Source of the DNA: a virus
Lineage: Duplodnaviria; Caudoviricetes
IMG/VR virus record: IMGVR_UViG_3300045002_000015
Location: 8,781 to 72,780 of that record
Length of the DNA: 64,000 nt
Strand: one strand, 5' to 3'
Shown here piece after piece: positions 6,319 through 64,000 of the stretch. How positions within the stretch are numbered: position 1 is the first letter of the stretch; each line of letters starts with the position of its first letter. The position numbers and the translations under genes were made by a program. The notes beneath the pieces were generated by a model. That model ran no database searches, had not been told where the DNA came from, and saw nothing but the letters and a program-made list of their open reading frames with translations.

Positions 6319-6504
6319 TTACATGGTGCGCGGGCGCGGCAGCGGCGCGCGGCACTTCGGGCAGATCACCCGCCGCGCGAGGCTTTCCTCGATCTCGGAT
6401 GCCGCACACTCGCTGACGTGGGAAAAGCCGCAGGTGCAGACCCAGAGGAAGCGCGCCTTTGGCTCCATCTGGCCCCCCCACGCATAGTCCTCGTCGAGCA
6501 TCAC
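6319..6504 (-). CDS. Small zinc-ribbon-like protein
   Basis: CTCG..C..CPKC; overlaps portal stop. Confidence 0.55.
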   Translation of the reverse strand: MMLDEDYAWGGQMEPKARFLWVCTCGFSHVSECAASEIEESLARRVICPKCRAPLPRPRTM

Positions 6505-9054: not shown

Positions 9055-9188
9055 GGCCTCTCAGTCCTTATGCCGGGCAAGCGCGCGAAACAGCGCGGCA
9101 TGCGCGCCATCCTCGCGCGCAGGCGCTGCATCCGGCGCCGATGGGGCAGGGGGCCACATCAGCCAGCCGGTGGGCAGGAAAGCGTCGC

Positions 9189-47760: not shown

Positions 47761-47985
47761 CTACCGCCAGCCAGGGTCGCCGATGTAGCGTTTTTCGAAC
47801 GCGATGCGGTCGCCGTCGACCACGGCATGGTAGTAAGCCGCCCCGGCCGCCACCACGACCTCGCGGACCCGCCCCGGCAACACATGCGGGCGGACCCGCC
47901 GGTACAGCCGCCGCTTATCGTCATGCACGACCCAGCCATTGCCCTTGGGCAGCGGATGCACCGCAACGACTGCGGCGCGTCTCAC
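47761..47985 (-). CDS. Hypothetical protein
   Basis: Overlaps relaxase stop. Confidence 0.45.
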   Translation of the reverse strand: MRRAAVVAVHPLPKGNGWVVHDDKRRLYRRVRPHVLPGRVREVVVAAGAAYYHAVVDGDRIAFEKRYIGDPGWR

Positions 47986-51470: not shown

Positions 51471-51544
51471 CGCTGCGCCTCGATGCCGGCCTCGGCGGGG
51501 TCCATTTCCGTACCCTAAAGCCCAGCGCGCGGCTTTTGCAACAG

Positions 51545-51568
51545 GCACCGTATGGTGCAATGGTCTGA
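51545..51568 (+). other. Putative oriT nic region
   Basis: GCACC-GTAT-GGTGC hairpin followed by AATGGTCT; resembles R388 GCACCGAAAGGTGCGTATTGTCT nic; lies between relaxase and divergent triplet. Confidence 0.7.
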
Positions 51569-51678
51569 TTTTGTGACCGCCGCCTGGAACCGGCAAAATA
51601 TCCGGGTTCACGGCACGCGGTGCGCAACCGAAGAACGCGGCTTGTGCAACCACGATTGCGTCTGATAGGATGTAACCA

Positions 51679-52101
51679 ATGGCGATAACCGACGCACTGG
51701 ACCGGGCTTTGGCCCGGGCGCGGCGACGAGGCCGGGGACAGCGGGCGCGCTCGCCGCTGTTTCTGGCGATGATCGAGCGTGCGGCTCAGGTGACCGAGGC
51801 GCGGAAGGACGTGACCTGGCGCGGCCTGGCGGAGGAGCTGGCCGCCGAAGGGATCACCGGCCCGGGCGGGCGGGTGTACTCAGGCGCGGCCGTGAAGGGG
51901 GCGTTCTACCGCGCGCGGCAGGCGTTGGCTGCTGCGGGCGGGACGGTGGTGTTCGGCGCGGCGCCGAAGATTCGCAGGAAGCCAAGCCGCAAGGGGCGGG
52001 TCCGTGCGCGATCGGCGCCCGCTCTGCCGCAGGCCGATCAACCGGCGGCGATCGAGGAGAAGCCGCGGGTCCGCGACTGGCGCGATCTGATGCAGGAGTG
52101 A
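51679..52101 (+). CDS. Putative oriT/stability DNA-binding protein (TraK/StbA position)
   Basis: VTWRGLAEELAAEGITG..YSGAAVKGAFYRAR HTH-like. Confidence 0.55.
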   Translation: MAITDALDRALARARRRGRGQRARSPLFLAMIERAAQVTEARKDVTWRGLAEELAAEGITGPGGRVYSGAAVKGAFYRARQALAAAGGTVVFGAAPKIRRKPSRKGRVRARSAPALPQADQPAAIEEKPRVRDWRDLMQE

Positions 52102-52116
52102 GGGGAGGAAGGGGAT

Positions 52117-52893
52117 TTGGACACACAGGTGACTGGCGCGCCGGTGGAGACGCGCCCGGTGCTGTTGGCCGCGTCCGGCCGTGGCCGGGTCGGCAAGACC
52201 GAGATGCTGGCCGTGGTGGCGCAACTCCTGGCCGAGGACGCGGGGTTCGAGGTCGAGGTCTGGGACTGCGACCCGGCGCGCGAGGTCGGCTCGCTGAGCG
52301 GACGCTTCAAGGGCGCCAAGCGCCCGCGCTCGGGCGACCTGGAGGATCGGCGGATTTTCCTGGAGGAGCACGGTCGCCGGTTGATGGAGGCGGCCGTGGA
52401 CGGGCGCCCGTTCCATGCCGTGCTGGATGTGGGCGGTGAGGACCTGCTGTTGCCGCTGATGGATGCCGAGGTGGGCTTCGGCGAGTTCCTGTCGCGCGCC
52501 GGGGTATCATTCGTGGTCGCGCATGTGGTCGGCACCGACGATGCCGATCTGGACTACCTGCGCCGGGTCGAGAAGCTGGGCCTGATCCGCGCGACGCGCG
52601 GGGCGATCGTGCGGAACGAGGGGATGCTGCGGACGACGGAGCGGCGCGACGCGGCCTTCCAGCGGGTCAATGACGATCCGGTGGTGCGGGCGTTCACCAG
52701 CAAGGCGCGTGGCGGGCGGTTGCTGTCGATGCCGGCACTGGCGCCGGACGTGATGCAGGACGTCAAGGCGTCGGGCCAGACGTTCCGCGAGTATGCCACC
52801 GATCCCAAACGGTGCTGGGACTTCCGCGCGGTCCGGGTGGCGCACTGGCTGGCCGGCTGCGAGGAGATGCGCCGGGCGATGCTGGGGCCATGA
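52117..52893 (+). CDS. ParA/MinD-like P-loop ATPase (TraL/StbB position)
   Basis: SGRGRVGKT, WDCDP, VLDVGG. Confidence 0.75.
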   Translation: MDTQVTGAPVETRPVLLAASGRGRVGKTEMLAVVAQLLAEDAGFEVEVWDCDPAREVGSLSGRFKGAKRPRSGDLEDRRIFLEEHGRRLMEAAVDGRPFHAVLDVGGEDLLLPLMDAEVGFGEFLSRAGVSFVVAHVVGTDDADLDYLRRVEKLGLIRATRGAIVRNEGMLRTTERRDAAFQRVNDDPVVRAFTSKARGGRLLSMPALAPDVMQDVKASGQTFREYATDPKRCWDFRAVRVAHWLAGCEEMRRAMLGP

Positions 52894-53312
52894 CGGAGAA
52901 GGTCGTCCGCCTGGCTCCGCCACCGACGGGTGCCGAGGACCGGGCGCGGAGCGTATTGGCGGAGTGTGGCCTGCGGCCCGGTGATCCGCCATTCGAGGCG
53001 TATATGGCGACGGCGCGGTCGATTGATGCGGCGGCGCGGCTGGGGGATCGCATCGAGGCGCTTGCGGCGCGGCTGGAGAAGGCGGGTACGCCGTTTGATC
53101 CGCGCGCCTATGAGATCATGCGGGCGACGCTGCGCCGCGCCGTGGGGGCCTTGGGCTGGCGCCGTGTGGCGGCTGCGTTTGCGGTGGGTCTGGTTGCTGG
53201 CGGGATCAGCGCCGGCATGGCGGTTTATTGGTGGCGTGATGTGCAATTGTGGCGGCATTGCCAGAGCGTGTATGCACTGTCGGCCTGCGCCGAGATTGCC
53301 GGCCGGCTTTGA
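52890..53312 (+). CDS. Membrane-anchored protein (TraM/StbC position)
   Basis: C-terminal TM; ATGA overlap. Confidence 0.55.
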   Translation: MTEKVVRLAPPPTGAEDRARSVLAECGLRPGDPPFEAYMATARSIDAAARLGDRIEALAARLEKAGTPFDPRAYEIMRATLRRAVGALGWRRVAAAFAVGLVAGGISAGMAVYWWRDVQLWRHCQSVYALSACAEIAGRL

Positions 53313-53501: not shown

Positions 53502-53558
53502 CACGATGTAGAGCCTCCGCCGCGTCTATTGTCGAGCTGACTACAACCAGCCACTCGG

Positions 53559-53792
53559 TCACGGTCCATTTGGAGGTGACGGCAGAGCCATCCAATGTGT
53601 TAGTTTCCAGTCGCAGTCTGAAAGACCTCCATGCTCGCTATTTCCTGACCATGCCGGCCCCGTTCCCTCCACCCAACAGAAGCGGCCGTTGAAGAACCCC
53701 ACGGTTGCCACGCACTCTCCATCGGTGGCTATAAGGACCGATCCATCTTTCGGGGCCGTCCCGATTGGCTGCCACCGGGGTTCGTCTGTCAT
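53559..53792 (-). CDS. DUF551-like phage protein
   Basis: WQPIGTAPKDG..THWMALPSPP. Confidence 0.8.
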   Translation of the reverse strand: MTDEPRWQPIGTAPKDGSVLIATDGECVATVGFFNGRFCWVEGTGPAWSGNSEHGGLSDCDWKLTHWMALPSPPNGP

Positions 53793-53902
53793 AGACCATT
53801 CTCCCAACTCAAGCCTTCTCCTCGCTCCAACGCTTCGCGCGCCCTTGTGGCGAACCAGGTCCGGTCAGGGTTGTCATTGTCATTGGTGGTTTTGTCGCTC
53901 AT
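53789..53902 (-). CDS. Cassette micro-ORF MSDKTT-NDNDNPDR (37 aa)
   Basis: Manual translation; overlaps both neighbours. Confidence 0.5.
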   Translation of the reverse strand: MSDKTTNDNDNPDRTWFATRAREALERGEGLSWENGL

Positions 53903-54084
53903 AGCGGCAGTCTCCGTCCATACAGCGCGCGCAAGAATTGGGACGCTGTCCTGCGCACCATTGCGTTGTCGTCCGCATCCTTGGGCTGGCCCATGATGCG
54001 CAGCAGCTCACGAACATAGCATTCGGCATGCCTCAATAACTCATCGTGGCCTGCAATAGCGGTCGTCTGGTTCTGATCAGCCAT
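53899..54084 (-). CDS. Cassette ORF MADQNQTT-AIAGH (cassette A, intact copy)
   Basis: Second copy at 57398-57572. Confidence 0.65.
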   Translation of the reverse strand: MADQNQTTAIAGHDELLRHAECYVRELLRIMGQPKDADDNAMVRRTASQFLRALYGRRLPL

Positions 54085-54298
54085 GATTTACCACTCCACA
54101 GTATCCTGCTTCCGGCCCGCGCCCCATACCGTCCATCGGCGTCCATGAAGGCAAGCACCGGGAGCACACCCAACCTTCTTCTGTTCCGTGCTCGCCGTAT
54201 TTGAACCAGCCGTAGGGGCCGCGCCCCAACCATCGACCACAAGCACAACGCGGGCGCATGATCGCCTCCCACCTGCGGGTCGTATTCCCCTTGCTCAT
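54077..54298 (-). CDS. Cassette ORF MSKGNTT-, Cys-rich
   Basis: CACG and CSRC pairs. Confidence 0.6.
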   Translation of the reverse strand: MSKGNTTRRWEAIMRPRCACGRWLGRGPYGWFKYGEHGTEEGWVCSRCLPSWTPMDGMGRGPEAGYCGVVNHG

Positions 54299-54606
54299 TG
54301 CCGACCTTCCACATGCGCTAAGAGGTCGCGTGCTTCTTGCATCAGTCGGGCCTCGTTTGCAGCGTGCCGCTCCTGGTGCCACGCGCCGCCAGGAAGTGCC
54401 ACGAAGCGCTTGACAAGGGAAAGTAGCTCCGGCGCAGCAGCAATCAGACGTGCAGTTCCAAGGTTGCCATCTGAGGCCATAAACGCGACGCGGTTGTCAG
54501 TCCCTGCGACGCAGACTTCGCTGGGGCTCCCGAGCTTGTCTCCCTGAAGCCATACGACTTCCCAGGGGCCGGGCAATGGGGTCGTTTGGGATTTACCGTC
54601 AGTCAC
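54295..54606 (-). CDS. Cassette ORF MTDGKSQTT-PLPGPW, phage hypothetical
   Basis: PGPW..ARLIAAAPELL motif typical of small phage proteins. Confidence 0.75.
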   Translation of the reverse strand: MTDGKSQTTPLPGPWEVVWLQGDKLGSPSEVCVAGTDNRVAFMASDGNLGTARLIAAAPELLSLVKRFVALPGGAWHQERHAANEARLMQEARDLLAHVEGRQ

Positions 54607-54802
54607 GTTTGCAGGCCTCCACCATTGAGGGAGCCATCACTACGTTGCGCATACGCTCGGCGATGCGCGCTGCTTCCTTGCTGCGCTCACGGGCTGGCAG
54701 ATACGCGATACCATCAACCGTGTGAGCCATGCGCACGACCCACGCACGGAGTGCAACTAGTTCTGACACCGCGTCTGGGGTCGTTTGGTTATAGTCAGCC
54801 AT
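54599..54802 (-). CDS. Cassette ORF MADYNQTT-
   Basis: Overlap-coupled ORF. Confidence 0.6.
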   Translation of the reverse strand: MADYNQTTPDAVSELVALRAWVVRMAHTVDGIAYLPARERSKEAARIAERMRNVVMAPSMVEACKRD

Positions 54803-54983
54803 GATCTACAATCCTCAACGAGCGTCGTAGGGCGCCGTCCATGACGCGCGAAAATCGAAGGTAATTCGGACACATCTCGGCACTGGTGCCCACGTAGCCT
54901 TGCAAGCAATCGGCGCGTTGTTCCATGCCACAGCCAGGGCATGGACTGGTCGTCTTGTCGTGCGGTTTCTGATGGTCACTCAT
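54795..54983 (-). CDS. Cassette ORF MSDHQKPHDKTT-, Cys-rich
   Basis: CPGC..C..C. Confidence 0.6.
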   Translation of the reverse strand: MSDHQKPHDKTTSPCPGCGMEQRADCLQGYVGTSAEMCPNYLRFSRVMDGALRRSLRIVDHG

Positions 54984-55284
54984 CAGCGAACATCCTGTAG
55001 CCGTTTGTGGGATGGCCGGCAGTGAACATGTCAGCAGACCGTTGAATGAAGGAGCGAGCTTCGTCCTCCGTCATCCACCCGGCATCGAAAGGCCCAGTGC
55101 CGAAGTCCTCTTCATAGGACCACTCAGGAGCGGCCACGATATCGTCGCCGCCGATATTCATGCGCCAGCTATCGTAGCGCGCCCGAAAGTAGAATGGTTT
55201 GCCATTTATGGTGCCCTCAGCCTGCACTGGGCAATTGCCACCTAACATCTGGATCACGACCTCGGCTGTCGTATCGTTAGTCAT
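54976..55284 (-). CDS. Cassette ORF MTNDTT-, hypothetical
   Basis: GGNCPVQAEGTINGKPFYFRARYDSW. Confidence 0.7.
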   Translation of the reverse strand: MTNDTTAEVVIQMLGGNCPVQAEGTINGKPFYFRARYDSWRMNIGGDDIVAAPEWSYEEDFGTGPFDAGWMTEDEARSFIQRSADMFTAGHPTNGYRMFADE

Positions 55285-55523
55285 CGGCTGATCTCCAATC
55301 GGGCCTGTCCAAAGCCGCAGCACTCGCACTGCCAGTAGAGCCATGCATCTGTCGGATCAGTAACTTCACACGTAGGGTGGGCCTCGATGCACGCGCCTTC
55401 CTCGAACCAGTCGAAGTAAATTGTTGAGACGCCACGATGCGCGCCGCTGATCTCGACCACGGAGCCGCGCACCGTCTGATAGCGCGCGGTCGTTTGGGAC
55501 GCGAGCTTCTGATCTGCACTCAT
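55281..55523 (-). CDS. Cassette ORF MSADQKLASQTT-
   Basis: Overlap-coupled; CECC near C-terminus. Confidence 0.6.
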   Translation of the reverse strand: MSADQKLASQTTARYQTVRGSVVEISGAHRGVSTIYFDWFEEGACIEAHPTCEVTDPTDAWLYWQCECCGFGQARLEISR

Positions 55524-55732
55524 GGGTCGCACCTCTTGCACAGGATCGGGACAGGTGCCCGATGCTCTTTGATATAATCAAACGGCTTTCGACACTGCTC
55601 GCATGAAGCACTTCCCCACGTCACGACTGGCGTTGAGCTTGTCCATGAAAACTGTCCGGGCAGAACGGCGGGGCTGAACACGACATTCCCCACGGTCGTC
55701 GGGTTATCGGCCATGGTCGTTTTGTCGCTCAT
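55520..55732 (-). CDS. Cassette ORF MSDKTT-MADNPTT-, Zn-ribbon-like
   Basis: Two tandem junctions; CEQC and CKRC. Confidence 0.6.
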   Translation of the reverse strand: MSDKTTMADNPTTVGNVVFSPAVLPGQFSWTSSTPVVTWGSASCEQCRKPFDYIKEHRAPVPILCKRCDP

Positions 55733-55998
55733 GCTGATTTTCCGCACTTGATTGTCTTTGCCTCTGGGTGATCGAACGCCATGTGGATTATGCTGCGCAG
55801 CTCACGTTTGATGGCATGATCCAGTTCGACGCCCTCGGTGTAGTCGATGTCGTCTCTCAGGTAGCCACCAAGGCTCAGCATACCGATCAGATCGGATGCC
55901 CAAACTGTCATCTGCTCGTCGTGACAGACAGCTTCGGCGGCAGCCTTCGGTCCGAGGATGACGGTCGTCTGGGAACTGTGCGGTTGATCGTCACTCAT
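55729..55998 (-). CDS. Cassette ORF MSDDQPHSSQTT-
   Basis: Overlap-coupled ORF. Confidence 0.6.
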   Translation of the reverse strand: MSDDQPHSSQTTVILGPKAAAEAVCHDEQMTVWASDLIGMLSLGGYLRDDIDYTEGVELDHAIKRELRSIIHMAFDHPEAKTIKCGKSA

Positions 55999-56173
55999 CG
56001 CTATCGTCTCCATCGTCCAGGCGCCCGCTGCCGCCACACTCGGGGCACTCGCCAGTAGAGCCGCAGAAGTCGCACCCCTCACCATCGCACGCTGGGCATT
56101 CACCAGTCTCAACGCACATAGGACACCGGCCGTCGAAGGCGGCCTCGTAATCCGGCCGCTTGCGCTCAGACAT
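55991..56173 (-). CDS. DnaJ-like Cys-rich zinc-finger miniprotein
   Basis: CPMC..CPACDG..CDFCG..CPECGG. Confidence 0.65.
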   Translation of the reverse strand: MSERKRPDYEAAFDGRCPMCVETGECPACDGEGCDFCGSTGECPECGGSGRLDDGDDSDE

Positions 56174-56246
56174 AGCCGAGGCCCTCGCATGTTGGGCATT
56201 TGGTGATGGTAATGGCGTGGTTGGTCTGAGGGACGTCATTGGCCAT
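56166..56246 (-). CDS. Cassette micro-ORF MANDVPQTN- (26 aa)
   Basis: CPTCEGLG; variant junction. Confidence 0.4.
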   Translation of the reverse strand: MANDVPQTNHAITITKCPTCEGLGYV

Positions 56247-56577
56247 TTGCAAGCTCCCGCACCTTGGCGTTGATAACTTCGCACATGGCGAAGCCGATTG
56301 ATTCAGCTTCACGAATGCGGCCACGAGAATAGGAGCCCTGCTTACCCTCTAAGTCGGTGTCAGCAACGTGTCGCAGAATTTCATCGTCGGCTGTCGCGGC
56401 GCACAGTTCCACAATCTCGTCGCGCACCCAACGCAGGAGATCGATAGCTTGCTGATTGGGTAAGTCGGACACGATCTTAGCTCGAGGTATGTCAATCTCT
56501 GTCAGTGTCGCAGTCACTACTATAACTGACCGGTCAGGGTTGTCATTGTCATTGGCCGTCTGGGAATTGTCATCCAT
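56236..56577 (-). CDS. Cassette ORF MDDNSQTA-NDNDNPDR
   Basis: Shares 26 bp with 53861-53886. Confidence 0.6.
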   Translation of the reverse strand: MDDNSQTANDNDNPDRSVIVVTATLTEIDIPRAKIVSDLPNQQAIDLLRWVRDEIVELCAATADDEILRHVADTDLEGKQGSYSRGRIREAESIGFAMCEVINAKVRELANGQ

Positions 56578-56776
56578 GATTTATCACTCTCCTAGTCCAG
56601 GCAATTGTCGCGGCCACCATGGCTGTGCAATAGAGAAAAGCAAAGAAGCAGACCGCATAAGTCAGCGGCCAACACGGGTAAGCGATGAGCGAGGCCATTG
56701 ACGCGATGATTCCGATACCAGAGCCGATACACACGACGGTCGCATTGTACTCTGTAGCGGTCGTTTTGTCGCTCAT
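56570..56776 (-). CDS. Cassette ORF MSDKTT-, 2-TM membrane protein
   Basis: Two hydrophobic segments. Confidence 0.6.
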   Translation of the reverse strand: MSDKTTATEYNATVVCIGSGIGIIASMASLIAYPCWPLTYAVCFFAFLYCTAMVAATIAWTRRVINHG

Positions 56777-56922
56777 GGTTCATCGTCCTCTATCACTCTA
56801 CGGCAGTGCGGGCAGCGGTCTCCGACCAAATCCGGATCACCTTCCCATCCGCAGCTTTCACAGACCCATGAGCCGCCCTTATGCTCCCAAGGGTCAGGCG
56901 CCTCGGTCGTTTCATCCTTCAT
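56773..56922 (-). CDS. Cassette ORF MKDETT-EAPDPW, Zn-ribbon (cassette B copy 1)
   Basis: CESC and CPHC; second copy at 57252-57403. Confidence 0.65.
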   Translation of the reverse strand: MKDETTEAPDPWEHKGGSWVCESCGWEGDPDLVGDRCPHCRRVIEDDEP

Positions 56923-57118
56923 CTGGTTGATTCTCCCTATTCCATTCCTCAATGGTCTTTGCCTCATTGAAGTAGGCGTGATGGCGCTTATCAATGATGT
57001 CGCGAACACGGTCGGCGAATGGATTGTCCCTGGCGTCCTCAGCAAAGAATGTCGCGTCAAAGATTTCTCGCACGGTTTCCTTCCACGCTGACTCGACAGT
57101 CGTTTTGTTCTCAGACAT
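56912..57118 (-). CDS. Cassette ORF MSENKTT-
   Basis: Overlap-coupled ORF. Confidence 0.6.
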   Translation of the reverse strand: MSENKTTVESAWKETVREIFDATFFAEDARDNPFADRVRDIIDKRHHAYFNEAKTIEEWNRENQPDEG

Positions 57119-57269
57119 CCTGAAGCCCCTTCAACCTATTCGCCTTTACCTCACACGCATGCGCTTCCGCCGAAGCAACGAGCGCTTGCTGACGTAACTG
57201 CACAGCGCGTTCGTAAAGGTAATCAGCGTAGTCTCGCCGTAGGTCAGCTTCGGTCGTCTTGTCGCTCAT
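57111..57269 (-). CDS. Cassette ORF MSDKTT-EADLRR (52 aa)
   Basis: Manual translation; helical. Confidence 0.55.
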   Translation of the reverse strand: MSDKTTEADLRRDYADYLYERAVQLRQQALVASAEAHACEVKANRLKGLQDV

Positions 57270-57415
57270 GGTTCATCGTCCTCTATCTCTCTGTGACAGC
57301 ACGGGCAGCGGTCTCCGACCAAATCCGGATCACCTTCCCATCCGCAGCTTTCACAGACCCATGAGCCGCCCTTATGCTCCCAAGGGTCAGGCGCCTCGGT
57401 GGTTTTGTCGCTCAT
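57266..57415 (-). CDS. Cassette ORF MSDKTT-EAPDPW, Zn-ribbon (cassette B copy 2)
   Basis: Same body as 56773-56922 with a different leader. Confidence 0.65.
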   Translation of the reverse strand: MSDKTTEAPDPWEHKGGSWVCESCGWEGDPDLVGDRCPCCHREIEDDEP

Positions 57416-57587
57416 AGCGGCAGTCTCCGTCCATACAGCGCGCGCAAGAATTGGGACGCTGTCCTGCGCACCACTGCGTTGTCGTCCGCATCCTTGGGCT
57501 GGCCCATGATGCGTAGCATATCGCGAACGTAGTCTTCGGCGTGCCTCAATAATGGCCTGCAATAGCGGTCGTTTGCTCGTCGCTCAC
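57412..57587 (-). pseudogene. Frameshifted copy of cassette A (MSDEQTT-AIAGH, 7-bp deletion)
   Basis: CGATGAG missing relative to 53899-54084, giving an early TGA. Confidence 0.7.
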
Positions 57588-57778
57588 TTGATTCTCCCAC
57601 ATCGCATGCAGCGTTCCTCGTATGGGTTGATCTGTTCCCAATCGTGGCCACCGAAGTCTTCTGCGCACAATCGCTCTCGTGTAGCCTGTCGCATCCCGAA
57701 GCCCGTGAAATGTCGCGGCAGGTTCTGTTGGTACTGATGGATGATCGCAGGTCCGGTGGTTGAGTCCTGGTTAGCCAT
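57584..57778 (-). CDS. Cassette ORF MANQDSTT-
   Basis: C..GHDW..CMRCG. Confidence 0.6.
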   Translation of the reverse strand: MANQDSTTGPAIIHQYQQNLPRHFTGFGMRQATRERLCAEDFGGHDWEQINPYEERCMRCGRIK

Positions 57779-57956
57779 GATTTGCAATCTCCCTGATCTT
57801 GGCCTCCGCTCGAATGAGCGCATTCCACTGCGCCTTGGTCCCGCAGGTTTGCCTCCTCCATTCGCTGAAGTCGCGGGCATTTCCGTCCGTCATCTGGCTA
57901 ATAGCTTCCAGAGCAGCTTGCGCCTCATCCCGCGTAAGTGTCGTTTTCTCGCTCAC
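57771..57956 (-). CDS. Cassette ORF MSEKTT-
   Basis: Helical; overlap-coupled. Confidence 0.6.
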   Translation of the reverse strand: MSEKTTLTRDEAQAALEAISQMTDGNARDFSEWRRQTCGTKAQWNALIRAEAKIREIANHG

Positions 57957-58135
57957 GACATGATCCTCCTAAGTGCGGCTTCGGCCCTCTTCAGACACTC
58001 ACACTCAGCGCCGCATCGACAGGGATCGGGGCATCTGCGGTTCTTGGCTATCTGATCGCGAGCCGATAAGACCCAGCCAATTTCCTCCGCAGTGAAAGCG
58101 GTCGTTCGGTTGCTGCGGTCCTGATGGTCACTCAT
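57953..58135 (-). CDS. Cassette ORF MSDHQDRSNRTT-, Cys cluster
   Basis: CPDPCRCGAECEC. Confidence 0.6.
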   Translation of the reverse strand: MSDHQDRSNRTTAFTAEEIGWVLSARDQIAKNRRCPDPCRCGAECECLKRAEAALRRIMS

Positions 58136-58304
58136 GGTATTTGCTCCACCTCCAATCCGCATATTCTATGTCGGCTGCCGTTGGTTCCCTGCACTCCCAG
58201 ACCGGCATCAATCGGTAAAGTTCCCACACCACAAACATACTGCGGTGTGTGGCTAGAGTGATATGAGACGGGAAATCGTCAGCGGTCGTTTTGTGATCAG
58301 TCAT
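58128..58304 (-). CDS. Cassette ORF MTDHKTT-
   Basis: Overlap-coupled ORF. Confidence 0.55.
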   Translation of the reverse strand: MTDHKTTADDFPSHITLATHRSMFVVWELYRLMPVWECREPTAADIEYADWRWSKYHE

Positions 58305-58491
58305 TCGGATATTCCTCTCTGGCTTCCAGAGCCTCATCGTCCATTCTGTCCTGCAAGCGAGCCAACGCCTCGTGCATCCGTCGTGATGCCTCGCGCTGCT
58401 GGTAAGTCATGCCGTCCCTCTCGATTGCCTGAAGCATCTCAGCCAATTCGCAAAGAGCCTCATCTCGCAGTGTCGTCTCAGCTTTGCTCAT
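58297..58491 (-). CDS. Cassette ORF MSKAETT- (first of array)
   Basis: Start overlaps end of the resolvase-fold gene. Confidence 0.6.
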   Translation of the reverse strand: MSKAETTLRDEALCELAEMLQAIERDGMTYQQREASRRMHEALARLQDRMDDEALEAREEYPND

Positions 58492-59152
58492 TCTGAATCT
58501 CCTTTCGTTTGGCTCTCGCCCGCTTCATTCCAGCCCTATGGGCGATTGCCCATCGTCTAGTGGGTAAGTGCTCTCTAGCTGTCTTCCAGGCCATCGGCTG
58601 CCAGTGGCCACGCTTGGTCTTACGGCCAGCACGGTGCAACAGTTCCTGCAACGTGAACTTGGGGTTTCCCCAGTCCTTCTCAATCAGCTTCACACGGCGC
58701 TTGGTATCGGCCAGCTTCTGTTCGGCAGTAACCTCCCAGCCGGCCCGGCCGGGCTGAACGGCGCCGCGCCGCTTGTCGGCCACGAAGTCTTCCTGGGCTT
58801 GCGCAATTTCGTCGGCACCAGCATCCGGTCCGATCTTCAGGCCGGTATTCAGTGCCACCAGCGTAGCGCCCCGGGCCTTCGCGGCAGCAAGGCAGCGCCC
58901 CAGGTCGCGCAGGTCGAACGCCAGCAGCCCCCAGCAGGCAAAGCGGATCGTCTCATCCCTCGACTGGCGGCCTGTTTGCGCCATCATCTTTCCGCGCCAA
59001 TAAAGCGCCGCAGCGTCCTTCCGCTTACGCTCACCCGGCCTTAGCTCATCCTGGTACTCGGCCTTGGCTTTGCCAGCGGCATCAAGCAACTCCCGCTGGG
59101 CCTCCCAGGTCCAGACCTTGAGGATATTGCTGAGATAGTTGATCTCGGGCAC
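58478..59152 (-). CDS. Divergent serine-recombinase (resolvase)-fold protein with basic C-terminal DNA-binding region
   Basis: Resolvase-like layout (NY..AQRELL..EYQD..R..DETIRFACWGLLAFDLRDL..KARGATLVALNTG); canonical YxRxS and DRLGR not conserved. Confidence 0.6.
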   Translation of the reverse strand: MPEINYLSNILKVWTWEAQRELLDAAGKAKAEYQDELRPGERKRKDAAALYWRGKMMAQTGRQSRDETIRFACWGLLAFDLRDLGRCLAAAKARGATLVALNTGLKIGPDAGADEIAQAQEDFVADKRRGAVQPGRAGWEVTAEQKLADTKRRVKLIEKDWGNPKFTLQELLHRAGRKTKRGHWQPMAWKTAREHLPTRRWAIAHRAGMKRARAKRKEIQNEQS

Positions 59153-59185: not shown

Positions 59186-59215
59186 TTGACAAGGTAGCAG
59201 CCTGGGGCATATAAA
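59186..59215 (+). promoter_or_regulatory. Strong sigma70-like promoter facing the right-hand array
   Basis: TTGACA (59186)-N18-TATAAA (59210). Confidence 0.75.
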
Positions 59216-59225
59216 TCAAGCACCA

Positions 59226-59450
59226 ATGACGGACAAGCGAGTGAAACCCCTAGCCCTGGAGGCTCCTATGGCTTCTACTTCCTCTCTTCTCTCCGTCTCT
59301 TTCGCTGACGCCAACGGCGTCTGGTCCGTCTCTCGCTACTTCAACACCATCCGCGCCGCCCGTCGGTGGGCGAAGTGGCTCAGCGGCCATTCTTATGTTC
59401 GTGAGGTGGCGATCCATCGAGGCGGCCAAGGAGGCGAGCGGGTCTCCTGA
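59226..59450 (+). CDS. Small hypothetical protein (likely start 59268)
   Basis: GGAGG RBS before MASTSS. Confidence 0.6.
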   Translation: MTDKRVKPLALEAPMASTSSLLSVSFADANGVWSVSRYFNTIRAARRWAKWLSGHSYVREVAIHRGGQGGERVS

Positions 59451-59497
59451 CCCGCTTTATCTGACAAACGATCAAACCCCTGTATCGGAGGAAACCT

Positions 59498-59683
59498 ATG
59501 AGCGAAGCATTCACACGCAACGATCTGATCGGTCTAGCCGAGTTGTTCAGGCTTGCCGTCCAGACCAATCCTCACGTCATCCCAGGTGTTGTGCCGGTGG
59601 CTCTGTCGCCCGATGACTGCGTGAGGATCGCAGACATTCTCACTGCTGAGATTGAGCGCCGTTGGATGGCGGTCGAGGCGTAG
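59498..59683 (+). CDS. Small hypothetical protein
   Basis: GGAGG RBS after junction. Confidence 0.65.
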   Translation: MSEAFTRNDLIGLAELFRLAVQTNPHVIPGVVPVALSPDDCVRIADILTAEIERRWMAVEA

Positions 59684-59712
59684 GTAGAAAACCCCTGTAT
59701 CGGAGCGGAGCT

Positions 59713-60021
59713 ATGGCCGAAGCTAGCGATCTCTTACGGCGCGTACAAGAGAAGAAAGCAGCGCTGACTGTCGTGACAGACCCCAAGGCCGGCGAGCAGT
59801 GGGGCGAGATGTCGTGGCCTGGCGTATTAGACCAGCCAGCCAGAACTGGACGGCAGATGCTTGAATTCGTGGCGCAGCAATATGGTAAGGTTGGGTGGGA
59901 GATAGGCGACCTCAAGGCGTTCTGGGACGCGTCTCCAACCGGAGAATTGTCCCACGTGTTCGAGTCGTATCAAACGGCATGTATGATCTACGAAGCAGAG
60001 CGTGAGTTGGAAAGCCACTAA
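59713..60021 (+). CDS. Hypothetical protein
   Basis: GGAG RBS after junction; ends TAAACCCC. Confidence 0.65.
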   Translation: MAEASDLLRRVQEKKAALTVVTDPKAGEQWGEMSWPGVLDQPARTGRQMLEFVAQQYGKVGWEIGDLKAFWDASPTGELSHVFESYQTACMIYEAERELESH

Positions 60022-60043
60022 ACCCCGATCTAGGGACGCGAAG

Positions 60044-60256
60044 ATGGTACGGAGCATTGTGATGAGCGGACTGGGGATCACAGTAGGAGCGCATGCCTCG
60101 GAAAGGCGTTCCGCGCAGTTCCTCGCAGAGCTTGAGGAAGTTGAGGGCATGACGCCTGGGCAGCTTCGCGTCGAGTGCCAGAAGATGGCCAAACAAGGCG
60201 GCTTCTCCGGCATGGTCGCGACGTTCGCGCTGGACCGCTACGACAACAAGCGCTGA
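60044..60256 (+). CDS. Small hypothetical protein
   Basis: Bounded by junctions at 60020 and 60256. Confidence 0.55.
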   Translation: MVRSIVMSGLGITVGAHASERRSAQFLAELEEVEGMTPGQLRVECQKMAKQGGFSGMVATFALDRYDNKR

Positions 60257-60264
60257 AACCCCCG

Positions 60265-60504
60265 ATGAGTCCTGAGCGCCTACGCGAGCTGATTGCGATG
60301 ACCGGCCTAGAGCGGCGGGAACTTGCCCGCCTGCTCGGCTATGGCTCCGACAACAGCCTACGCCAGTGCGAGCGAGGGAAGGCGACGCTTCCAGCCGACA
60401 AAGCGAAGTGGCTGGAGGGCTACGCTAAGCTGCGCGCAAGGCATGCGGAACAGATCGCCAAGTGGCTCCAGAAAAATCCGCCGCCCAGCGAAAATAACGG
60501 TTGA
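60265..60504 (+). CDS. XRE-like HTH protein
   Basis: LERRELARLLGYGSDNSLRQCERGKATLP; similar to 14944-15240. Confidence 0.75.
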   Translation: MSPERLRELIAMTGLERRELARLLGYGSDNSLRQCERGKATLPADKAKWLEGYAKLRARHAEQIAKWLQKNPPPSENNG

Positions 60505-60531
60505 CTTCTATGCGCGATGCGCGCATATACT
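60501..60531 (+). promoter_or_regulatory. Internal promoter with palindromic operator
   Basis: TTGACT..TATACT flanking TATGCGC-N5-GCGCATA. Confidence 0.6.
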
Positions 60532-60555
60532 AGGGGCATCAAGACGGAGACGGAC

Positions 60556-60810
60556 ATGGCTATCAATCTTCCGAAGTGGACGGACTGCACCACAGAGCAG
60601 CACATTCGTGCTGGCGCATATCGCGCTGCGGCTGAGCGGCTCGCCATGCTGCACCGGGAATACGTCAGTGCATGCGAGCGTTGGCAGACCGAATGCGCGG
60701 CAGATGGAATCGATCCAGAGCTTGAGCGCGATTACTATGAAATCGATAAGCTGGCTATGCGAAGGAACGCCGCAGAAGCGAACGCAATCGGCTTCGCCAG
60801 CGCTTACTAA
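60556..60810 (+). CDS. Hypothetical helical protein
   Basis: GGAG RBS; ends TAAACCCC. Confidence 0.65.
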   Translation: MAINLPKWTDCTTEQHIRAGAYRAAAERLAMLHREYVSACERWQTECAADGIDPELERDYYEIDKLAMRRNAAEANAIGFASAY

Positions 60811-60852
60811 ACCCCAGTTACCTTCCGGCGCCTCGCGGATCAGGGGCGGAGA

Positions 60853-61110
60853 ATGGAGATGACGAACCATCCGAACCGAAAGAAACCGGTACCTCCTGCG
60901 GTTAAGCGTTACATGCAGGAGTTTGGAGAGACGGAGGCCGATTTCAGGAAATGGTTGGGTATTCAAAGGGATGCCCACAAAGCCATTGCCGACTGCTCTG
61001 ACGCCAATGGTAACCGAATAGGGCTTGTGACATGGGTTGCATACAAAATGGGATGTTCGGCCGCAGCCGCAAAGAGCGCACTAGCATGGGCCGGAATCAT
61101 CGAGACATAA
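60853..61110 (+). CDS. Hypothetical protein with TNHPNR N-terminus
   Basis: Ends TAACCCCC. Confidence 0.65.
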   Translation: MEMTNHPNRKKPVPPAVKRYMQEFGETEADFRKWLGIQRDAHKAIADCSDANGNRIGLVTWVAYKMGCSAAAAKSALAWAGIIET

Positions 61111-61131
61111 CCCCCGAAAGGAAGCCCTCAG

Positions 61132-61392
61132 ATGACCTACGTAGTTCGCGAGATCGAAACCGGGTTCATCATCGTCGGATCACAGGGCGCGCTACTACGC
61201 GATGGTGGTGCTGGCATGAACGGTGAACCGCTGGTCTGGCGTGAGCGCGCTAGGGCAGAGGCCAAGGCTGAGTGGATGAACCGCGTAGTTGCATCGGCCT
61301 TGATGACTAGATCAGAGCGTAGAACACTGCGGAACGAGATCGCCACGAAACATGGCATAAGTGCCGACACTGCACGTGGCCTTCTGAACTGA
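61132..61392 (+). CDS. Hypothetical protein
   Basis: AAGGA RBS after junction. Confidence 0.65.
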   Translation: MTYVVREIETGFIIVGSQGALLRDGGAGMNGEPLVWRERARAEAKAEWMNRVVASALMTRSERRTLRNEIATKHGISADTARGLLN

Positions 61393-61418
61393 CATAAACC
61401 CGATCTTGGAGAAAAGCC

Positions 61419-61598
61419 ATGTGCGGCCCAAGCATCACCCAACTCCTCGCCCGCGAAGGCATCACGCACGAGCGAGATTCCTGGACTGCCAAGGACCATT
61501 GCCACCGCCTTTACGCCAACGGCGAATACATCGGACGCTACGATGCCGCTCAGGCCGTCAAGTTTCTCGAAGCGTTGACCCACGAGAAGCTAACATAA
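61419..61598 (+). CDS. Small hypothetical protein (59 aa)
   Basis: Manual translation MCGPSITQLL..; GGAG RBS; ends TAACCCC. Confidence 0.6.
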   Translation: MCGPSITQLLAREGITHERDSWTAKDHCHRLYANGEYIGRYDAAQAVKFLEALTHEKLT

Positions 61599-61612
61599 CC
61601 CCGGAGAACGAC

Positions 61613-61816
61613 GTGCATCACATCGCCAAGCAGGACGACAAGCTCTACATCTACTCGATGGGCAAACGCCTTCGGGTTACCGCCGTTTTCTCTGACGATG
61701 AATCGGCCAACGCACACATGGCGCGCCATTCCGACGATGCGGTGATCGCCTGCTTTGGCCAGTTCGTATTCCTGGCTAATAAGTATGACCACGGCGAACG
61801 CGCCGCAGTGTCCTGA
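61613..61816 (+). CDS. Small hypothetical protein
   Basis: GGAG RBS plus GTG right after junction. Confidence 0.6.
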   Translation: MHHIAKQDDKLYIYSMGKRLRVTAVFSDDESANAHMARHSDDAVIACFGQFVFLANKYDHGERAAVS

Positions 61817-61838
61817 ACCCCAGTCTAGGAACCCAACA

Positions 61839-62039
61839 ATGACTTTGGATGAAAAGTTTGGCGAGAAGTCTGGTATGACAAAAGAACGGAGATACGAACA
61901 AGTACTGAAGCAAATCGCGGAGGGCAGTGATGCTGTGCCGGCACATGCCTGGAGGTACTTGGCGCACACCACGCTGGGTGAGTTCGGCGTTTCCTCCGAG
62001 TACCGAGAGGATGAGCGCCACCCATGGCCCGAAGACTAA
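61839..62039 (+). CDS. Small hypothetical protein
   Basis: AGGA RBS; ends TAAAACCCC. Confidence 0.6.
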   Translation: MTLDEKFGEKSGMTKERRYEQVLKQIAEGSDAVPAHAWRYLAHTTLGEFGVSSEYREDERHPWPED

Positions 62040-62203
62040 AACCCCGTCCAGCTTACACATACTGCATCTACGAGAAGTCTGAGACCGACTATCGCGTGAT
62101 GCACGGCAACAAGATCGTCAGCCGACACAGCACCGAACAAGAGGCCCGTGCCGCGCTTAAACGCGATTTTTTCAAAGAAACACTAAACCCCGGAGTAGAC
62201 TGA
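62024..62203 (+). CDS. Small hypothetical protein (59 aa) spanning two junctions
   Basis: MARRLKP-RPAYTYCIYEK..ETLNP-GVD. Confidence 0.5.
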   Translation: MARRLKPRPAYTYCIYEKSETDYRVMHGNKIVSRHSTEQEARAALKRDFFKETLNPGVD

Positions 62204-62454
62204 TGCAGTACGAGCAAACAGCGCGCCGGATGAGTGCGATGGACATTCACCCCAGCCTACGCATCACAGACACAGGTCCGGCGATCGGCACCTATCGAGG
62301 CAGGAAGATTGCCGAGTGGATCGACAGGGCCGGCGAGCGGTTCCTGTATGATCGTCCAGCGGTGGAAGATGCTGACGGTGGCGTGCCGCTGTCACAACTC
62401 AGGTCGGACGAGTTCGTGGTCGCTCCCGGCCTGATCTATCGACGTGCGACATAA
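62203..62454 (+). CDS. Hypothetical protein
   Basis: GGAG RBS; ends TAACCCCC. Confidence 0.65.
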   Translation: MQYEQTARRMSAMDIHPSLRITDTGPAIGTYRGRKIAEWIDRAGERFLYDRPAVEDADGGVPLSQLRSDEFVVAPGLIYRRAT

Positions 62455-62474
62455 CCCCCGAAAGGACCTATGCC

Positions 62475-62687
62475 ATGACCGTCACGATCGAGATAATCGG
62501 TCCTCGCGATGAGATCGTTGAGATGGGCCACTTTATATCGGACGCTATAGGGCTCAACATGGATCGGGCGCGGCGCCCTAGACCTCTACTGCGCCGTCTG
62601 ATTGATTCATGGAAGCCTGATGTCTTAGCGTACCCCATGATCGGCAGCGAGGGTCACGGCGCGGCGTTCAAGTACCGGAGCAAATAA
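62475..62687 (+). CDS. Small hypothetical protein
   Basis: AAGGA RBS; ends TAAACCCCC. Confidence 0.6.
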   Translation: MTVTIEIIGPRDEIVEMGHFISDAIGLNMDRARRPRPLLRRLIDSWKPDVLAYPMIGSEGHGAAFKYRSK

Positions 62688-62705
62688 ACCCCCGAGAGGA
62701 AGGAT

Positions 62706-62888
62706 ATGTTAGCTTATGTGATTCTAATGTGCCTCGGCGGTAGCCAGTGCATTCCGTTCCCTATATCGTTCCAGGATTTGGCAACGTGTCAGGCTAATGT
62801 CAGCTACTTGAATGGCTCGGCGCTCAGTCAGGCAGTGACCTCTCGTTGTGAACCGTGGAGCCTCGTTCCTTCGGACAAGAAGTCCTAA
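62706..62888 (+). CDS. Small exported Cys-containing protein
   Basis: Hydrophobic N-terminus, four Cys. Confidence 0.6.
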   Translation: MLAYVILMCLGGSQCIPFPISFQDLATCQANVSYLNGSALSQAVTSRCEPWSLVPSDKKS

Positions 62889-62911
62889 ATCCCCGGATAA
62901 AAAGGTCGCCT

Positions 62912-63037
62912 ATGCGTGATCCATTCCAGCAGTTCGTCACTTTTGGCCTTCCTGCAAGAAATGGGCGCGCGATCTGGATCACGCCAAGGCAGCGTTTGCG
63001 TATCACTGCCACAATGACCCAGCCTGGAAAGCGTTAG
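62912..63037 (+). CDS. Micro-ORF (41 aa)
   Basis: AAGG RBS after junction. Confidence 0.4.
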   Translation: MRDPFQQFVTFGLPARNGRAIWITPRQRLRITATMTQPGKR

Positions 63038-63074
63038 GCGAAGCCGAAATCAATAGAAGGATCGACGTGCTAAC

Positions 63075-63323
63075 ATGATAAAGGCAACAGGCAAAGGGCC
63101 GTGGGGACGTAACACTCTGTTCGTCGGCCTGTCGTTCGGCAACCTCGATAAGTTTCGCGCGGCCCCATGCGACACCTACATTCGCATCGACGGCAAGGAA
63201 GTCGGGCTACCGTTTGATGTGATGATCTTCTCTGGCGAGACAGAAGCACAAATGGCGGACATGATGGCCAGTGGCTTCGGGCCTAACACGAAGGTCCACA
63301 TCAGCGACCGATCGAAGAACTGA
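63075..63323 (+). CDS. Hypothetical protein
   Basis: LFVGLSFGNLDKFR; AAGGA RBS. Confidence 0.65.
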   Translation: MIKATGKGPWGRNTLFVGLSFGNLDKFRAAPCDTYIRIDGKEVGLPFDVMIFSGETEAQMADMMASGFGPNTKVHISDRSKN

Positions 63324-63357
63324 GACGAAACCCCACTCAAGGGAGGCCATTACACCC

Positions 63358-63540
63358 ATGCTGACTGACGAAGAAATTGATCTGCTAAGAAAGCGAGCAG
63401 AAAAGGCGGTGAAGTCAAAGTGGCAAGTTCATGTGGATGCCGATGACTTGCTTGACTTAATTTGGCTGGCACAAGGCGGCGATGCCTACAACAGTCTAGC
63501 GCCCTACCACGGCTGTCCGATTGCGCAACGAGTCCGATAA
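63358..63540 (+). CDS. Small hypothetical protein
   Basis: GGGAGG RBS after junction. Confidence 0.55.
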   Translation: MLTDEEIDLLRKRAEKAVKSKWQVHVDADDLLDLIWLAQGGDAYNSLAPYHGCPIAQRVR

Positions 63541-63602
63541 CCTAAACCCCGGTAGGGGGCGGCATAAAGATTAATGAGTAGCCCGAGAGAGGCAAAAAAC
63601 AC

Positions 63603-63785
63603 ATGATTGAGGACACGGGAATGGTCGGAGTGAGTGAAGAAGCTATCGCTAATATCCTGAATGACCCGGAGATTTGGACCGCCTTAAAGGCGATACCAGC
63701 CGATCAGAGGGCAGAGTTGTGGCGTGATCTGGGTGTGCCCGACGATAAAATCGCCGAGATGCAAGTAGAAATCGAACAGCACTAA
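63603..63785 (+). CDS. Small acidic hypothetical protein
   Basis: GAGG RBS; ends TAAACCCCC. Confidence 0.6.
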   Translation: MIEDTGMVGVSEEAIANILNDPEIWTALKAIPADQRAELWRDLGVPDDKIAEMQVEIEQH

Positions 63786-63794
63786 ACCCCCGTC

Positions 63795-63989
63795 ATGACG
63801 CGGATTACCGCAAAGGCGGTGTTGGCAAAGATGATGGAAGAGCTTAGCGAGAACGATTGGCCATCGGAGCAGACTTGGACGGATGCATGTCGAGTCCTGG
63901 GCCGTCGGGTGCCGAAACCTATTAGGCCGGGTAAGACAGTAAGCGTCTATCGCGCCGTTGATGGCGCGCCTCGCAAGTTCGAACCGTAA
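63795..63989 (+). CDS. Small hypothetical protein
   Basis: Bounded by junctions; ends TAACCCC. Confidence 0.6.
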   Translation: MTRITAKAVLAKMMEELSENDWPSEQTWTDACRVLGRRVPKPIRPGKTVSVYRAVDGAPRKFEP

Positions 63990-64000
63990 CCCCGGATGAG

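Follow-up and report, generated by a model that had tools for sequence, protein, structure and literature searches.

The window analysed here is the last 64 kb (positions 8,781 to 72,780) of the 72,780-bp IMG/VR record IMGVR_UViG_3300045002_000015, a virus of the Caudoviricetes (CheckV completeness 85%). Its right end, from 59244 to 64000, is occupied by a row of small genes separated by copies of a short motif, (T)AAACCCC. The record is not circularised and this right array runs off the right contig end. The gene set consisted of 20 plus-strand open reading frames (ORFs) of 41–102 aa, named g1 to g20. A promoter-like sequence, P1, precedes the first motif, and beyond it lies a divergent gene, hereafter the hub gene, which opens a second array of small genes on the minus strand (the left array). 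A further promoter-like sequence, P2 (60502-60531), lies inside the right array and carries in its spacer the palindromic, operator-like TATGCGCG...CGCGCATA. P1 and P2 were called by eye and are conserved in relatives; a sigma-70 consensus scan lists neither, because of an 18–19 nt spacer or an imperfect −10 element. The g5 product is the sole array protein with a family (XRE/HTH_31, E = 6.7e-5): Pfam and PHROGs returned nothing for the 19 others of the 20, and weak profile matches (e.g., minor tail protein, E = 0.006) were disregarded.

An inspection of the letters alone (the sequence-only reading) had listed 19 motif sites in this region, and all were recovered at the positions given: 17 are exact plus-strand copies of AACCCC and two are one-base variants (AAACCC at 61396 and AAATCCCC at 62887). 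Between 59200 and 64000 the word AACCCC occurs 17 times on the plus strand and 0 times on the minus strand, against 1.1 ± 1.05 copies expected (maximum 7) from 2000 dinucleotide-preserving shuffles of the same segment, so that the enrichment proposed as a check was found; the remaining 68 kb of the contig hold only 5 further plus-strand copies. The motif lies upstream of 18 of the 20 starts, with a Shine-Dalgarno (SD)-like GGAG/AGGA between motif and start, and the distance between its last C and the start is 10–17 nt for 12 genes and, for 6, exactly 17 nt. Its reported fusion to stop codons was also observed: motif and upstream stop codon overlap at 12 junctions, the terminal A(s) of TAA/TGA doubling as the opening A(s) of the motif, and at the remaining junctions the stop is located 4–24 nt upstream. 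The two boundaries devoid of a motif are g16/g17 (63037/63075), which had been pointed out, and g5/g6, where the promoter-like TTGACT...TATACT of P2 sits. Likewise, g12 (62024-62203), which starts upstream of the core at 62039, does read through two sites, 62039 and 62185, the TAA being out of frame at 62185. The longer identities are real, AAACCCCTGTATCGGAG being shared by 59474 and 59689 and GACATAACCCCCGAAAGGA by 61104 and 62448; the exact 19-mer GACATAACCCCCGAAAGGA had no match in IMG/VR. The main word at the joints is TAAACCCC, and the CGAAAGG leaders of g8 and g14 have a fifth C. Near-empty units were seen upstream of the 59689 core in runs X7 and X9 (see below), TTAACCCCC...AAACCCC and CGAACCCC-TATGAGGCGACG-AAACCCC, with a second core 12–18 nt upstream.

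Folding 18 junctions as RNA yielded no common structure (mean z +0.5, none below −1.2), and the Cs were mostly unpaired. These folds bear on an alternative raised in the sequence-only reading, in which CCCC pairs with the downstream GGAG/GGGG and hides the ribosome-binding site (RBS) until the previous gene has been translated. CCCC and a G-rich SD are indeed 3–10 nt apart at most junctions, and a few of these, e.g., 60020 and 62686, allow a 3-bp CCC/GGG stem. However, in the minimum-free-energy folds the Cs were unpaired or had varying partners with no common helix, the junctions were no more stable than their shuffles, and pairing with GGAG over 3–4 bp would place a C opposite an A. As such pairing also leaves the breakpoints described below unexplained, and as folding gave it no support, we consider it very unlikely. 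Neither promoter-like nor terminator-like sites (sigma-70 scan) nor stem-loops (RNA folding) were detected at the junctions.

Relatives were located by exact-sequence look-ups of array proteins, which gave four contigs, and the array was also aligned with Logan contigs of four soil-metagenome runs, which stem from two independent studies (X numbers denote contigs, records or runs; L numbers denote the other related contigs). As had been inferred from the punctuation alone, the small genes behave as cassettes: the same genes recur in differing orders, numbers and neighbourhoods among related contigs. A fixed gene order, with breakpoints ignoring the motif, had been named as the outcome that would speak against this, and the order was not fixed in L001, L008, L009 or the Logan contigs, where breaks fall at the motif. 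In L001 (JGI, 26 kb), the relaxase side is shared at 96.4% identity, the left-array cassettes are reordered and a single right-array cassette, that of g3, stands between unrelated neighbours, identity extending from AAAC[C/A]CC to TAAACCCC. L008, from the same sample as L001, carries in this order g7, g10-g11-g12, g14-g15, a g7 paralogue, g19 and g5 with P2, and is devoid of g8, g9, g13 and g16–g18. All of its segment ends bar one (60555) lie at cores, and adjacent segments overlap by 8–9 nt, which correspond to the motif. There, g5 and P2 follow g19 at 99% identity, with the left end at 60256 and the right end at the non-motif break, 60555; g10 directly follows g7, the joint being CATAACCCC, and is decayed, having lost its start to a 15-nt deletion and carrying a frameshift; an A run 1 nt shorter alters the upstream ATG that opens g12, which ends at the motif TAA; and cassette 15 is replaced by the 63-aa g7 paralogue, preceded by the same leader as g7, the T of AAATC staying with g15. 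In both L008 and record 2 of X3, g13 is missing and 62185 is joined to 62453 over 6 shared letters. In L009, from another JGI sample, g8 is present at 91% identity in a GC-rich phage-like contig, with TAAACCCC after the cassette. As 19 of the 23 differences between the two g8 copies are at codon position 3, and as 18 of the codon changes are synonymous and 3 nonsynonymous, the array genes are, judged by this substitution pattern, real.

Table 1. Coordinates of the features discussed (positions in the window).
Feature	Position	Strand	Remarks
MobF (TrwC-type) relaxase	47982-51653	-	
Candidate oriT	51510-51680		Inverted repeats, then GATTGCGTCT/GATAGG at ~51655-51670; between relaxase start and StbB/ParA-like operon
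StbB/ParA-like operon	51679-53312
Hub gene, 224 aa	58478..59152	-	Divergent from right array; first gene of left array
P1, promoter-like (TTGACA, 18 nt, TATAAA)	59187..59216	+	Read by eye; would drive the array
First core (attI-like position, leader after P1) and cassette 1 (g1, 59268-59450)	59244..59480	+
Cassette 2 (g2, 59498-59683)	59474..59695	+
Cassette 3 (g3, 59713-60021)	59689..60026	+	In L001, 1 mismatch/324 nt
Cassette 4 (g4, 60044-60256)	60020..60263	+	X5 contig with other upstream neighbour joins at 60018
Composite cassette 5 (g5, 60265-60504; P2, 60502-60531; g6, 60556-60810)	60256..60815	+
Cassette 6 (g7, 60853-61110)	60809..61115	+	L008 190-501, 98% identical, both ends at motif
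Cassette 7 (g8, 61132-61392)	61109..61401	+	No counterpart in L008; 91% identity in L009; in X7/X9 contigs
Cassette 8 (g9, 61419-61598; core variant AAACCC)	61396..61602	+	Not in L008
Cassette 9 (g10, 61613-61816)	61597..61821	+	L008 copy decayed; joins differ in X5, X7
Cassettes 10-11 (g11, 61839-62039; g12, 62024-62203)	61816..62191	+	Pair stays together in L008
Cassette 12 (g13, 62203-62454)	62185..62459	+	Core inside g12 3' end; missing from L008 and X3 record 2
Cassettes 13-14 (g14, 62475-62687; g15, 62706-62888)	62453..62894	+	L008 1049-1489, 1 mismatch/427 nt, ends at motif
Cassette 15 (g16, 62912-63037, 41 aa, doubtful; g17, 63075-63323)	62887..63334	+	Core AAATCCCC; no motif between g16 and g17
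Cassette 16 (g18, 63358-63540)	63328..63550	+	Not in L008
Cassette 17 (g19, 63603-63785)	63544..63791	+	L008 1729-1977, 99.6% identity, both ends at motif
Cassette 18 (g20, 63795-63989) and core at 63988, the start of one more cassette truncated by the contig end	63784..64000	+

The Logan contigs showed the same behaviour. An X5 contig joins 60809 to 61597, g3 has three different upstream neighbours at 59689 among the runs, and on either side of g19 contigs of X5 and X7 have neighbours other than those of the window. Joints or loose ends were found at 59689, 60018, 60027, 60809/60815, 61113, 61392/61405, 61597, 62184/5, 62453, 63543/4 and 63783/90. Over L001, L002 (a hub relative, see below), L008, L009 and the Logan contigs, 23 of the 27 homology ends or joints lie ≤ 3 nt from the motif, compared to 6% expected, the latter value being the share of the region covered by 10-nt motif windows plus a 3-nt margin. 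The rearrangements comprise relocation (g5 and P2 after g19), duplication (the g7 paralogue), transfer (g8 into L009) and deletion. The cassettes shared with relatives are 98.3–99.8% identical, whereas the adjacent backbone, compared over 3.2 kb, is 96.4% identical (P between 3e-6 and 0.05 per cassette); on these identities, cassette exchange is therefore more recent than the divergence of the backbone. Differential loss from one ancestral array was considered and set aside, since it does not explain cassettes that are more identical than the backbone.

The XRE gene and the palindromic promoter-like site form a travelling module, found at 60265-60531 in the window, 10891-11120 in L001 and 1979-2250 in L008, and are present twice in the L001/L008 element; the two probably constitute an autoregulated internal promoter of the array.

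Both JGI contigs, that of the window and L001, end inside the array, as is the case where assembly graphs branch, and the rearrangements might thus be assembly artefacts or chimeras formed at a repeated word. Contig ends within the array also fit real heterogeneity of the population. The shared words are 7–19 nt long, below assembler k-mers, and JGI and Logan assemblies of separate runs reproduce the orders of the window, L001 and L008: the X3 records match those of L001 and L008, and the element of the window is also represented by a Logan contig of 12,951 bp, in which the order is that of the window. We therefore regard an assembly origin as extremely unlikely. The same Logan contig answers the proposal to size the array by extending the contig, as it holds one or two more small genes and then continues with genes of 95, 148, 76, 403 (flavin oxidoreductase) and 350 aa, known from their sizes only.

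The position of the crossover can be read from the variants of the core. Left-side variants stay with the upstream gene (AAACA in L001, AAATC at g15, ATAA versus CTAAA), and the bases after CC, fifth C and RBS included, go with the downstream gene. The segregating unit therefore runs from CC through spacer, SD and ORF to the stop and its AAACC, in agreement with the unit CCCC-RBS-ORF-stop-AAA put forward in the sequence-only reading.

The hub protein was modelled with AlphaFold (AF2) at a pLDDT of 94.8, and the top 20 Foldseek hits of the model were all serine recombinases (gamma-delta, Tn3, Sin, Hin, Gin; probability 0.93–1.0). The model comprises a resolvase catalytic-domain fold and a C-terminal helical DNA-binding part. 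The family profile matched Tn3 resolvase with E = 0.006, and hhalign aligned it in register with gamma-delta resolvase (15–108 versus 15–100; probability 49%). About 149 cluster representatives make up the family; no relatives of the hub protein were found in viral-contig or genome-contig collections. L002 encodes a 76%-identical hub and, divergent from it, an array of 18 genes, none of which is related to those of the window; its cargo includes an orphan N6/N4 methyltransferase, SSB and a helix-turn-helix (HTH) protein. Eleven of its junctions carry (T)AAACCCC or a near variant, and AAACCCCGATCTA, shared with the window, occurs three times. The motif is thus conserved with unrelated cargo. 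The surroundings of P1 are ~74% identical in L002 up to 59231-59242, homology ending just before the first motif. Motif-punctuated mini-arrays also stand beside the hub in L003 (hub 46% identical), in L007 and in L013 (hub 38% in both), the last being a phage-like contig of a metagenome-assembled genome. As in the window, the motif directly follows the hub-side promoter or leader in L002, L007 and L013. In L007, the hub gene is adjacent to a T5orf172 gene, a second recurrent platform gene. A tRNA-like sequence was noticed beside the hub in two distant relatives, L013 (~9850-9930, minus strand), where it separates the hub-side promoter region from the first core of the array, and L012 (1-100).

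The left array is devoid of the AAACCCC motif, and its core, AAACGACC, is located inside the 5' coding ends of genes, ..AAAACGACC being in frame after the start codon. In this array (53513-58502, minus strand), ten segments of 144–557 bp are common to L001 at 88–99.7% identity, in a wholly different order. Most segment ends lie within ~10 nt of plus-strand GGTCGT/GGTGGT hexamers; on the coding strand these are ACGACC/ACCACC and follow ATGAGCGACAAA in frame (MSDK-TT). As the core is array-specific, can sit inside coding sequence and, in the left array, is a different word at which shuffling also takes place, the constraint common to both arrays points to DNA exchange and not to a position in a translation signal. 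Both core types occur together in the g10 leader (61597-61625), which holds TAACCCCGGAGAACGACGTG. In addition, one X7 contig joins the body of g10 at 61610 to another N-terminus (..ATGACCAAGACGAC/GTGCATCAC), a left-array-style in-frame ACGAC junction, hinting at traffic between the two types of array. In L009, a 12-nt direct repeat, GATGAGCGATCG (714-725 and 1149-1160), flanks a 423-bp insertion that contains the g8 cassette; the second copy of the repeat is the start (MSDR) of the next gene, and within the insertion TAAACCCC is followed by AAACGACGACC, so that both core types are present.

We consider it reasonably probable that 59244-64000 is a hypervariable array of mini-gene cassettes which recombine at the motif through a dedicated activity. 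We infer that recombination is directed to the motif by such an activity and does not reflect passive microhomology, the hub protein being the leading candidate. Several observations weigh against this. (i) Slippage or template switching independent of RecA can operate on seven to 10 bases in common, and motif-centred breaks are no proof of site-specific chemistry. (ii) The fixed place of the motif 5' of the SD, 10–17 nt from the start, is also expected of an expression signal. (iii) Conservation is confined to the left side of the core; to the right the sequence varies and contains the SD, and the inverted right half-site that a canonical serine recombinase dimer requires is missing. (iv) The breaks at 60555 and 59420 ignore the motif. 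(v) The relatives are all metagenomic. (vi) Neither a tyrosine integrase (PF00589, E ≤ 1) nor a PF00239 resolvase nor an IS200-type/Y1 transposase was found on the 85%-complete contig, and the hub protein itself has no Pfam (PF00239 Resolvase included) or PHROG match. (vii) The hub protein lacks the canonical R8, S10, D67, R68 and R71 (D67 is replaced by G, R68 by L and R71 by F and, by register, R8 by S and S10 by I), GLLAF standing in place of DRLGR and Y6-L-S8-N-I10 in place of the N-terminal YxRxS. (viii) L001 has a T5orf172/MUG113 (GIY-YIG-like) gene and a 51-aa gene at the hub position (9058-9664). No motif array accompanies the hub of the distant relative L010, and AACCCC is found on neither strand of L012 and once per strand in L014.

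The hub protein keeps Y6, Q19, D35/36 and R-K near position 45, and S8-N9 is invariant in the family. We are confident, from the predicted structure, that it has a resolvase fold; a non-canonical active site that includes the invariant S8 is possible. It could be an unusual catalyst or a DNA-binding regulator of the divergent promoters. TnpR regulates the divergent promoters of tnpA and tnpR. That the hub carries out site-specific recombination at the cores is, in our estimation, rather unlikely.

Could the motif primarily act at the RNA level? It might be an intercistronic signal (an unstructured A/C-rich standby or re-initiation site, or a processing or protein-binding site), the breaks arising by microhomology slippage or template switching at the sole shared word and selection keeping the products that preserve genes. 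We judge this possible, although not probable. The strict sense-strand occurrence of the motif, the recurrent spacing to 12 of the 20 starts, the overlap with 12 stop codons and its presence in the 5' leader after P1 are all in line with such a signal; however, the motif is unused at the other genes of the element, where only the 5 further copies exist, g6 and g17 do without it, and around g12/g13 it lies inside the coding frame, at 62039 even downstream of the g12 start. The junction RNA is slightly less structured than its shuffles, as for accessible initiation regions, and the start-associated sequences of Cluster K mycobacteriophages, whose function is unknown, offer a precedent (PMC3203893). 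Against this, shuffling is no less effective in the left array, where a different core lies within coding sequence, and the motif is kept alongside a gene with a DNA-recombinase fold across 38–76% identity. Direct repeats of 8–10 nt delete without an enzyme, but relocation, duplication, transfer between phages and cassettes more identical than the backbone exceed local slippage.

Two further ideas were set aside as leading explanations. The conservation restricted to the 5' side of the core might have reflected a pseudo-nick site of a relaxase or HUH enzyme, but the oriT-like GCGTCT/GATAGG is unrelated to AAACCCC and no Y1 transposase was found. The idea that the motif serves a primase, or primes synthesis, on the transferred strand was dropped; the left array is without the motif.

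Recombination through a dedicated activity would proceed as follows. At least 19 promoterless cassettes would be co-transcribed from P1, beside the divergent resolvase-fold hub gene, with one further internal promoter regulated by the XRE-type protein. Cutting and rejoining would take place at the strand-specific core (T)AAACC/CC at each joint (slash, cut), AAACC and the fused stop going with the upstream cassette and the post-CC spacer, SD and ORF with the downstream cassette. Such recombination would delete, insert, duplicate, relocate and swap cassettes among related elements and, occasionally, carry them into unrelated phages. The array, probably part of the leading region of this conjugative and phage-like element, might thereby act as an integron-style gene bank, with establishment or anti-defence genes as its probable cargo. 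A more specific proposal, to which we give a limited chance, is that the hub family forms a new lineage within the serine-recombinase fold, its active site re-wired (Y6-x-S8-N9 invariant; canonical R8, S10, R68 and R71 missing), and that it captures and shuffles promoterless mini-gene cassettes at one-sided 7–9 nt cores. The different overlaps, AAACC/CC and AAAAC/GA/CC, would then keep the two divergent arrays from cross-recombining, and the system would be an integron analogue of alphaproteobacterial phages and conjugative elements in which establishment or anti-defence genes are banked.

A literature search returned no description of such a junction-punctuated array, the only analogues being integrons, promoter-early stem-loops (PeSLs) and start-associated sequences (SAS). 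The array resembles integrons in that (i) a divergent platform gene and a promoter face promoterless cassettes of one orientation, the first junction lying right after the promoter, (ii) cassette content and order vary among close relatives, with the cargo turning over faster than the backbone, and (iii) cassettes move as units bounded at the core (the 23 of 27 breakpoints mentioned above). In contrast to integrons, no IntI-type tyrosine recombinase is adjacent to the array, the neighbouring gene having a serine-recombinase fold; the site is a one-sided 7–9 nt core in a 20–45 nt spacer with no conserved hairpin, whereas attC is a folded site of 57–141 bp with R''/L''-L'/R' boxes; and two divergent arrays with different cores are located on a conjugative, phage-like element and not on a chromosome or transposon.

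Each PeSL, ~100 bp long, combines a sigma-70 promoter with a terminator stem-loop; PeSLs mediate homologous recombination in the hyperplastic regions of T4-type phages, for which excision as mini-circles and subsequent re-insertion have been proposed (Arbiol et al. 2010, PMC2839356; Comeau et al. 2014, PMC4122927). Here too, ORFan mini-genes are flanked by a repeated motif in which the ends of indels or replacements between close relatives fall; however, the motif is a 7–10 nt core between a stop and the next RBS within one operon, devoid of promoter and terminator. The SAS and the extended SAS (ESAS) of Cluster K mycobacteriophages are built on a 13-bp word of the GGGATAGGAGCCC type, which includes the SD and lies 3–7 bp before the start (Pope et al. 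2011, PMC3203893). They share with the present core a short asymmetric form in one orientation before many non-structural small genes of various families, an occasional overlap with the upstream stop, conservation across subclusters with different genes and a function that is unknown. The core described here is nevertheless a different word, located 5' of the SD and 10–17 nt from the start, and no cassette shuffling at SAS sites is reported in PMC3203893.

In the crossover cores of Gin and Hin, AAACC beside the central dinucleotide forms the left half (PMC4587366, Table 1). At all junctions the present core has a left half similar to AAACC plus a dinucleotide, and the adjacent hub has the gamma-delta/Hin/Gin/Sin fold. 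This likeness rests on 5 bases: the right half-site GGTTT is missing, so that the two inverted 12-bp half-sites (..AAACC) around a 2-bp dinucleotide do not occur at the array junctions, and the sites are direct and not inverted repeats. A last comparison concerns the anti-defence islands of leading regions (Samuel et al. 2024, PMC11541004). The array described here is close to a MobF relaxase, on the far side of an oriT-like sequence and a StbB/ParA-like gene, and thus probably on the leading side; L002 carries the orphan methyltransferase and SSB described above, and another relative a Lar-type restriction-alleviation gene. Unlike in such islands, none of the 20 window proteins matches a known anti-defence family (Pfam, PHROGs), and no punctuating junction motif has been described for them. 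The orientation of the right array is probably wrong for single-strand transcription during transfer of the T-strand.

We regard the locus as a mobile gene-cassette array, with a real chance that it represents a new platform. Few routes are known for swapping small ready-to-express genes: attC recombination in integrons, homologous exchange at T4-type PeSLs and Xer-bounded dif modules. Exchange takes place here unit by unit at a core of 7–9 bases, fused to stops and followed by each gene's own RBS, and this core is conserved across elements that share only the resolvase-fold neighbour in the array region. Should a dedicated activity be responsible, the array would represent a new gene-capture platform and a compact natural design for assembling polycistronic arrays, and would give a handle on the pool of ORFans traded fast by soil alphaproteobacterial phages and conjugative elements; as they are evidently exchanged fast, these ORFans are likely to be establishment or counter-defence factors. 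Should passive microhomology be responsible, the locus would still be a clean natural case of short linker sequences between modules. Such linkers were postulated by the modular theory of phage evolution.

The contig combines phage and conjugation modules, encoding a portal protein, a MobF relaxase, VirB4, a coupling protein and a PDDEXK exonuclease. The closest plasmid relatives of the relaxase (~40% identity) are from Acetobacteraceae, Roseomonas and Acidiphilium, and the runs with array DNA are soil and rhizosphere metagenomes. The sequence GATTGCGTCT/GATAGG of the candidate origin of transfer (oriT) resembles the R388 nick region, the nick site and the transferred strand being presumed accordingly. 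Because this R388-like sequence and a ParA/StbB-like gene lie upstream of the relaxase gene, everything to the right of the oriT-like site, both mini-gene arrays included, is by analogy probably the leading region. The GC content falls from ~66% to 55–58% across 54–64 kb, a segment that spans both arrays, which fits array cargo drawn from another pool than the backbone. In DNA searches, neither the array nor a 20-kb piece of the backbone matched GenBank phages or PLSDB plasmids, and no relatives of a 140-aa backbone protein were found among metagenome contigs. The portal protein (Phage_portal_3; 6501-8597, minus strand) is fused to a C-terminal inorganic pyrophosphatase-like (InPase) domain.

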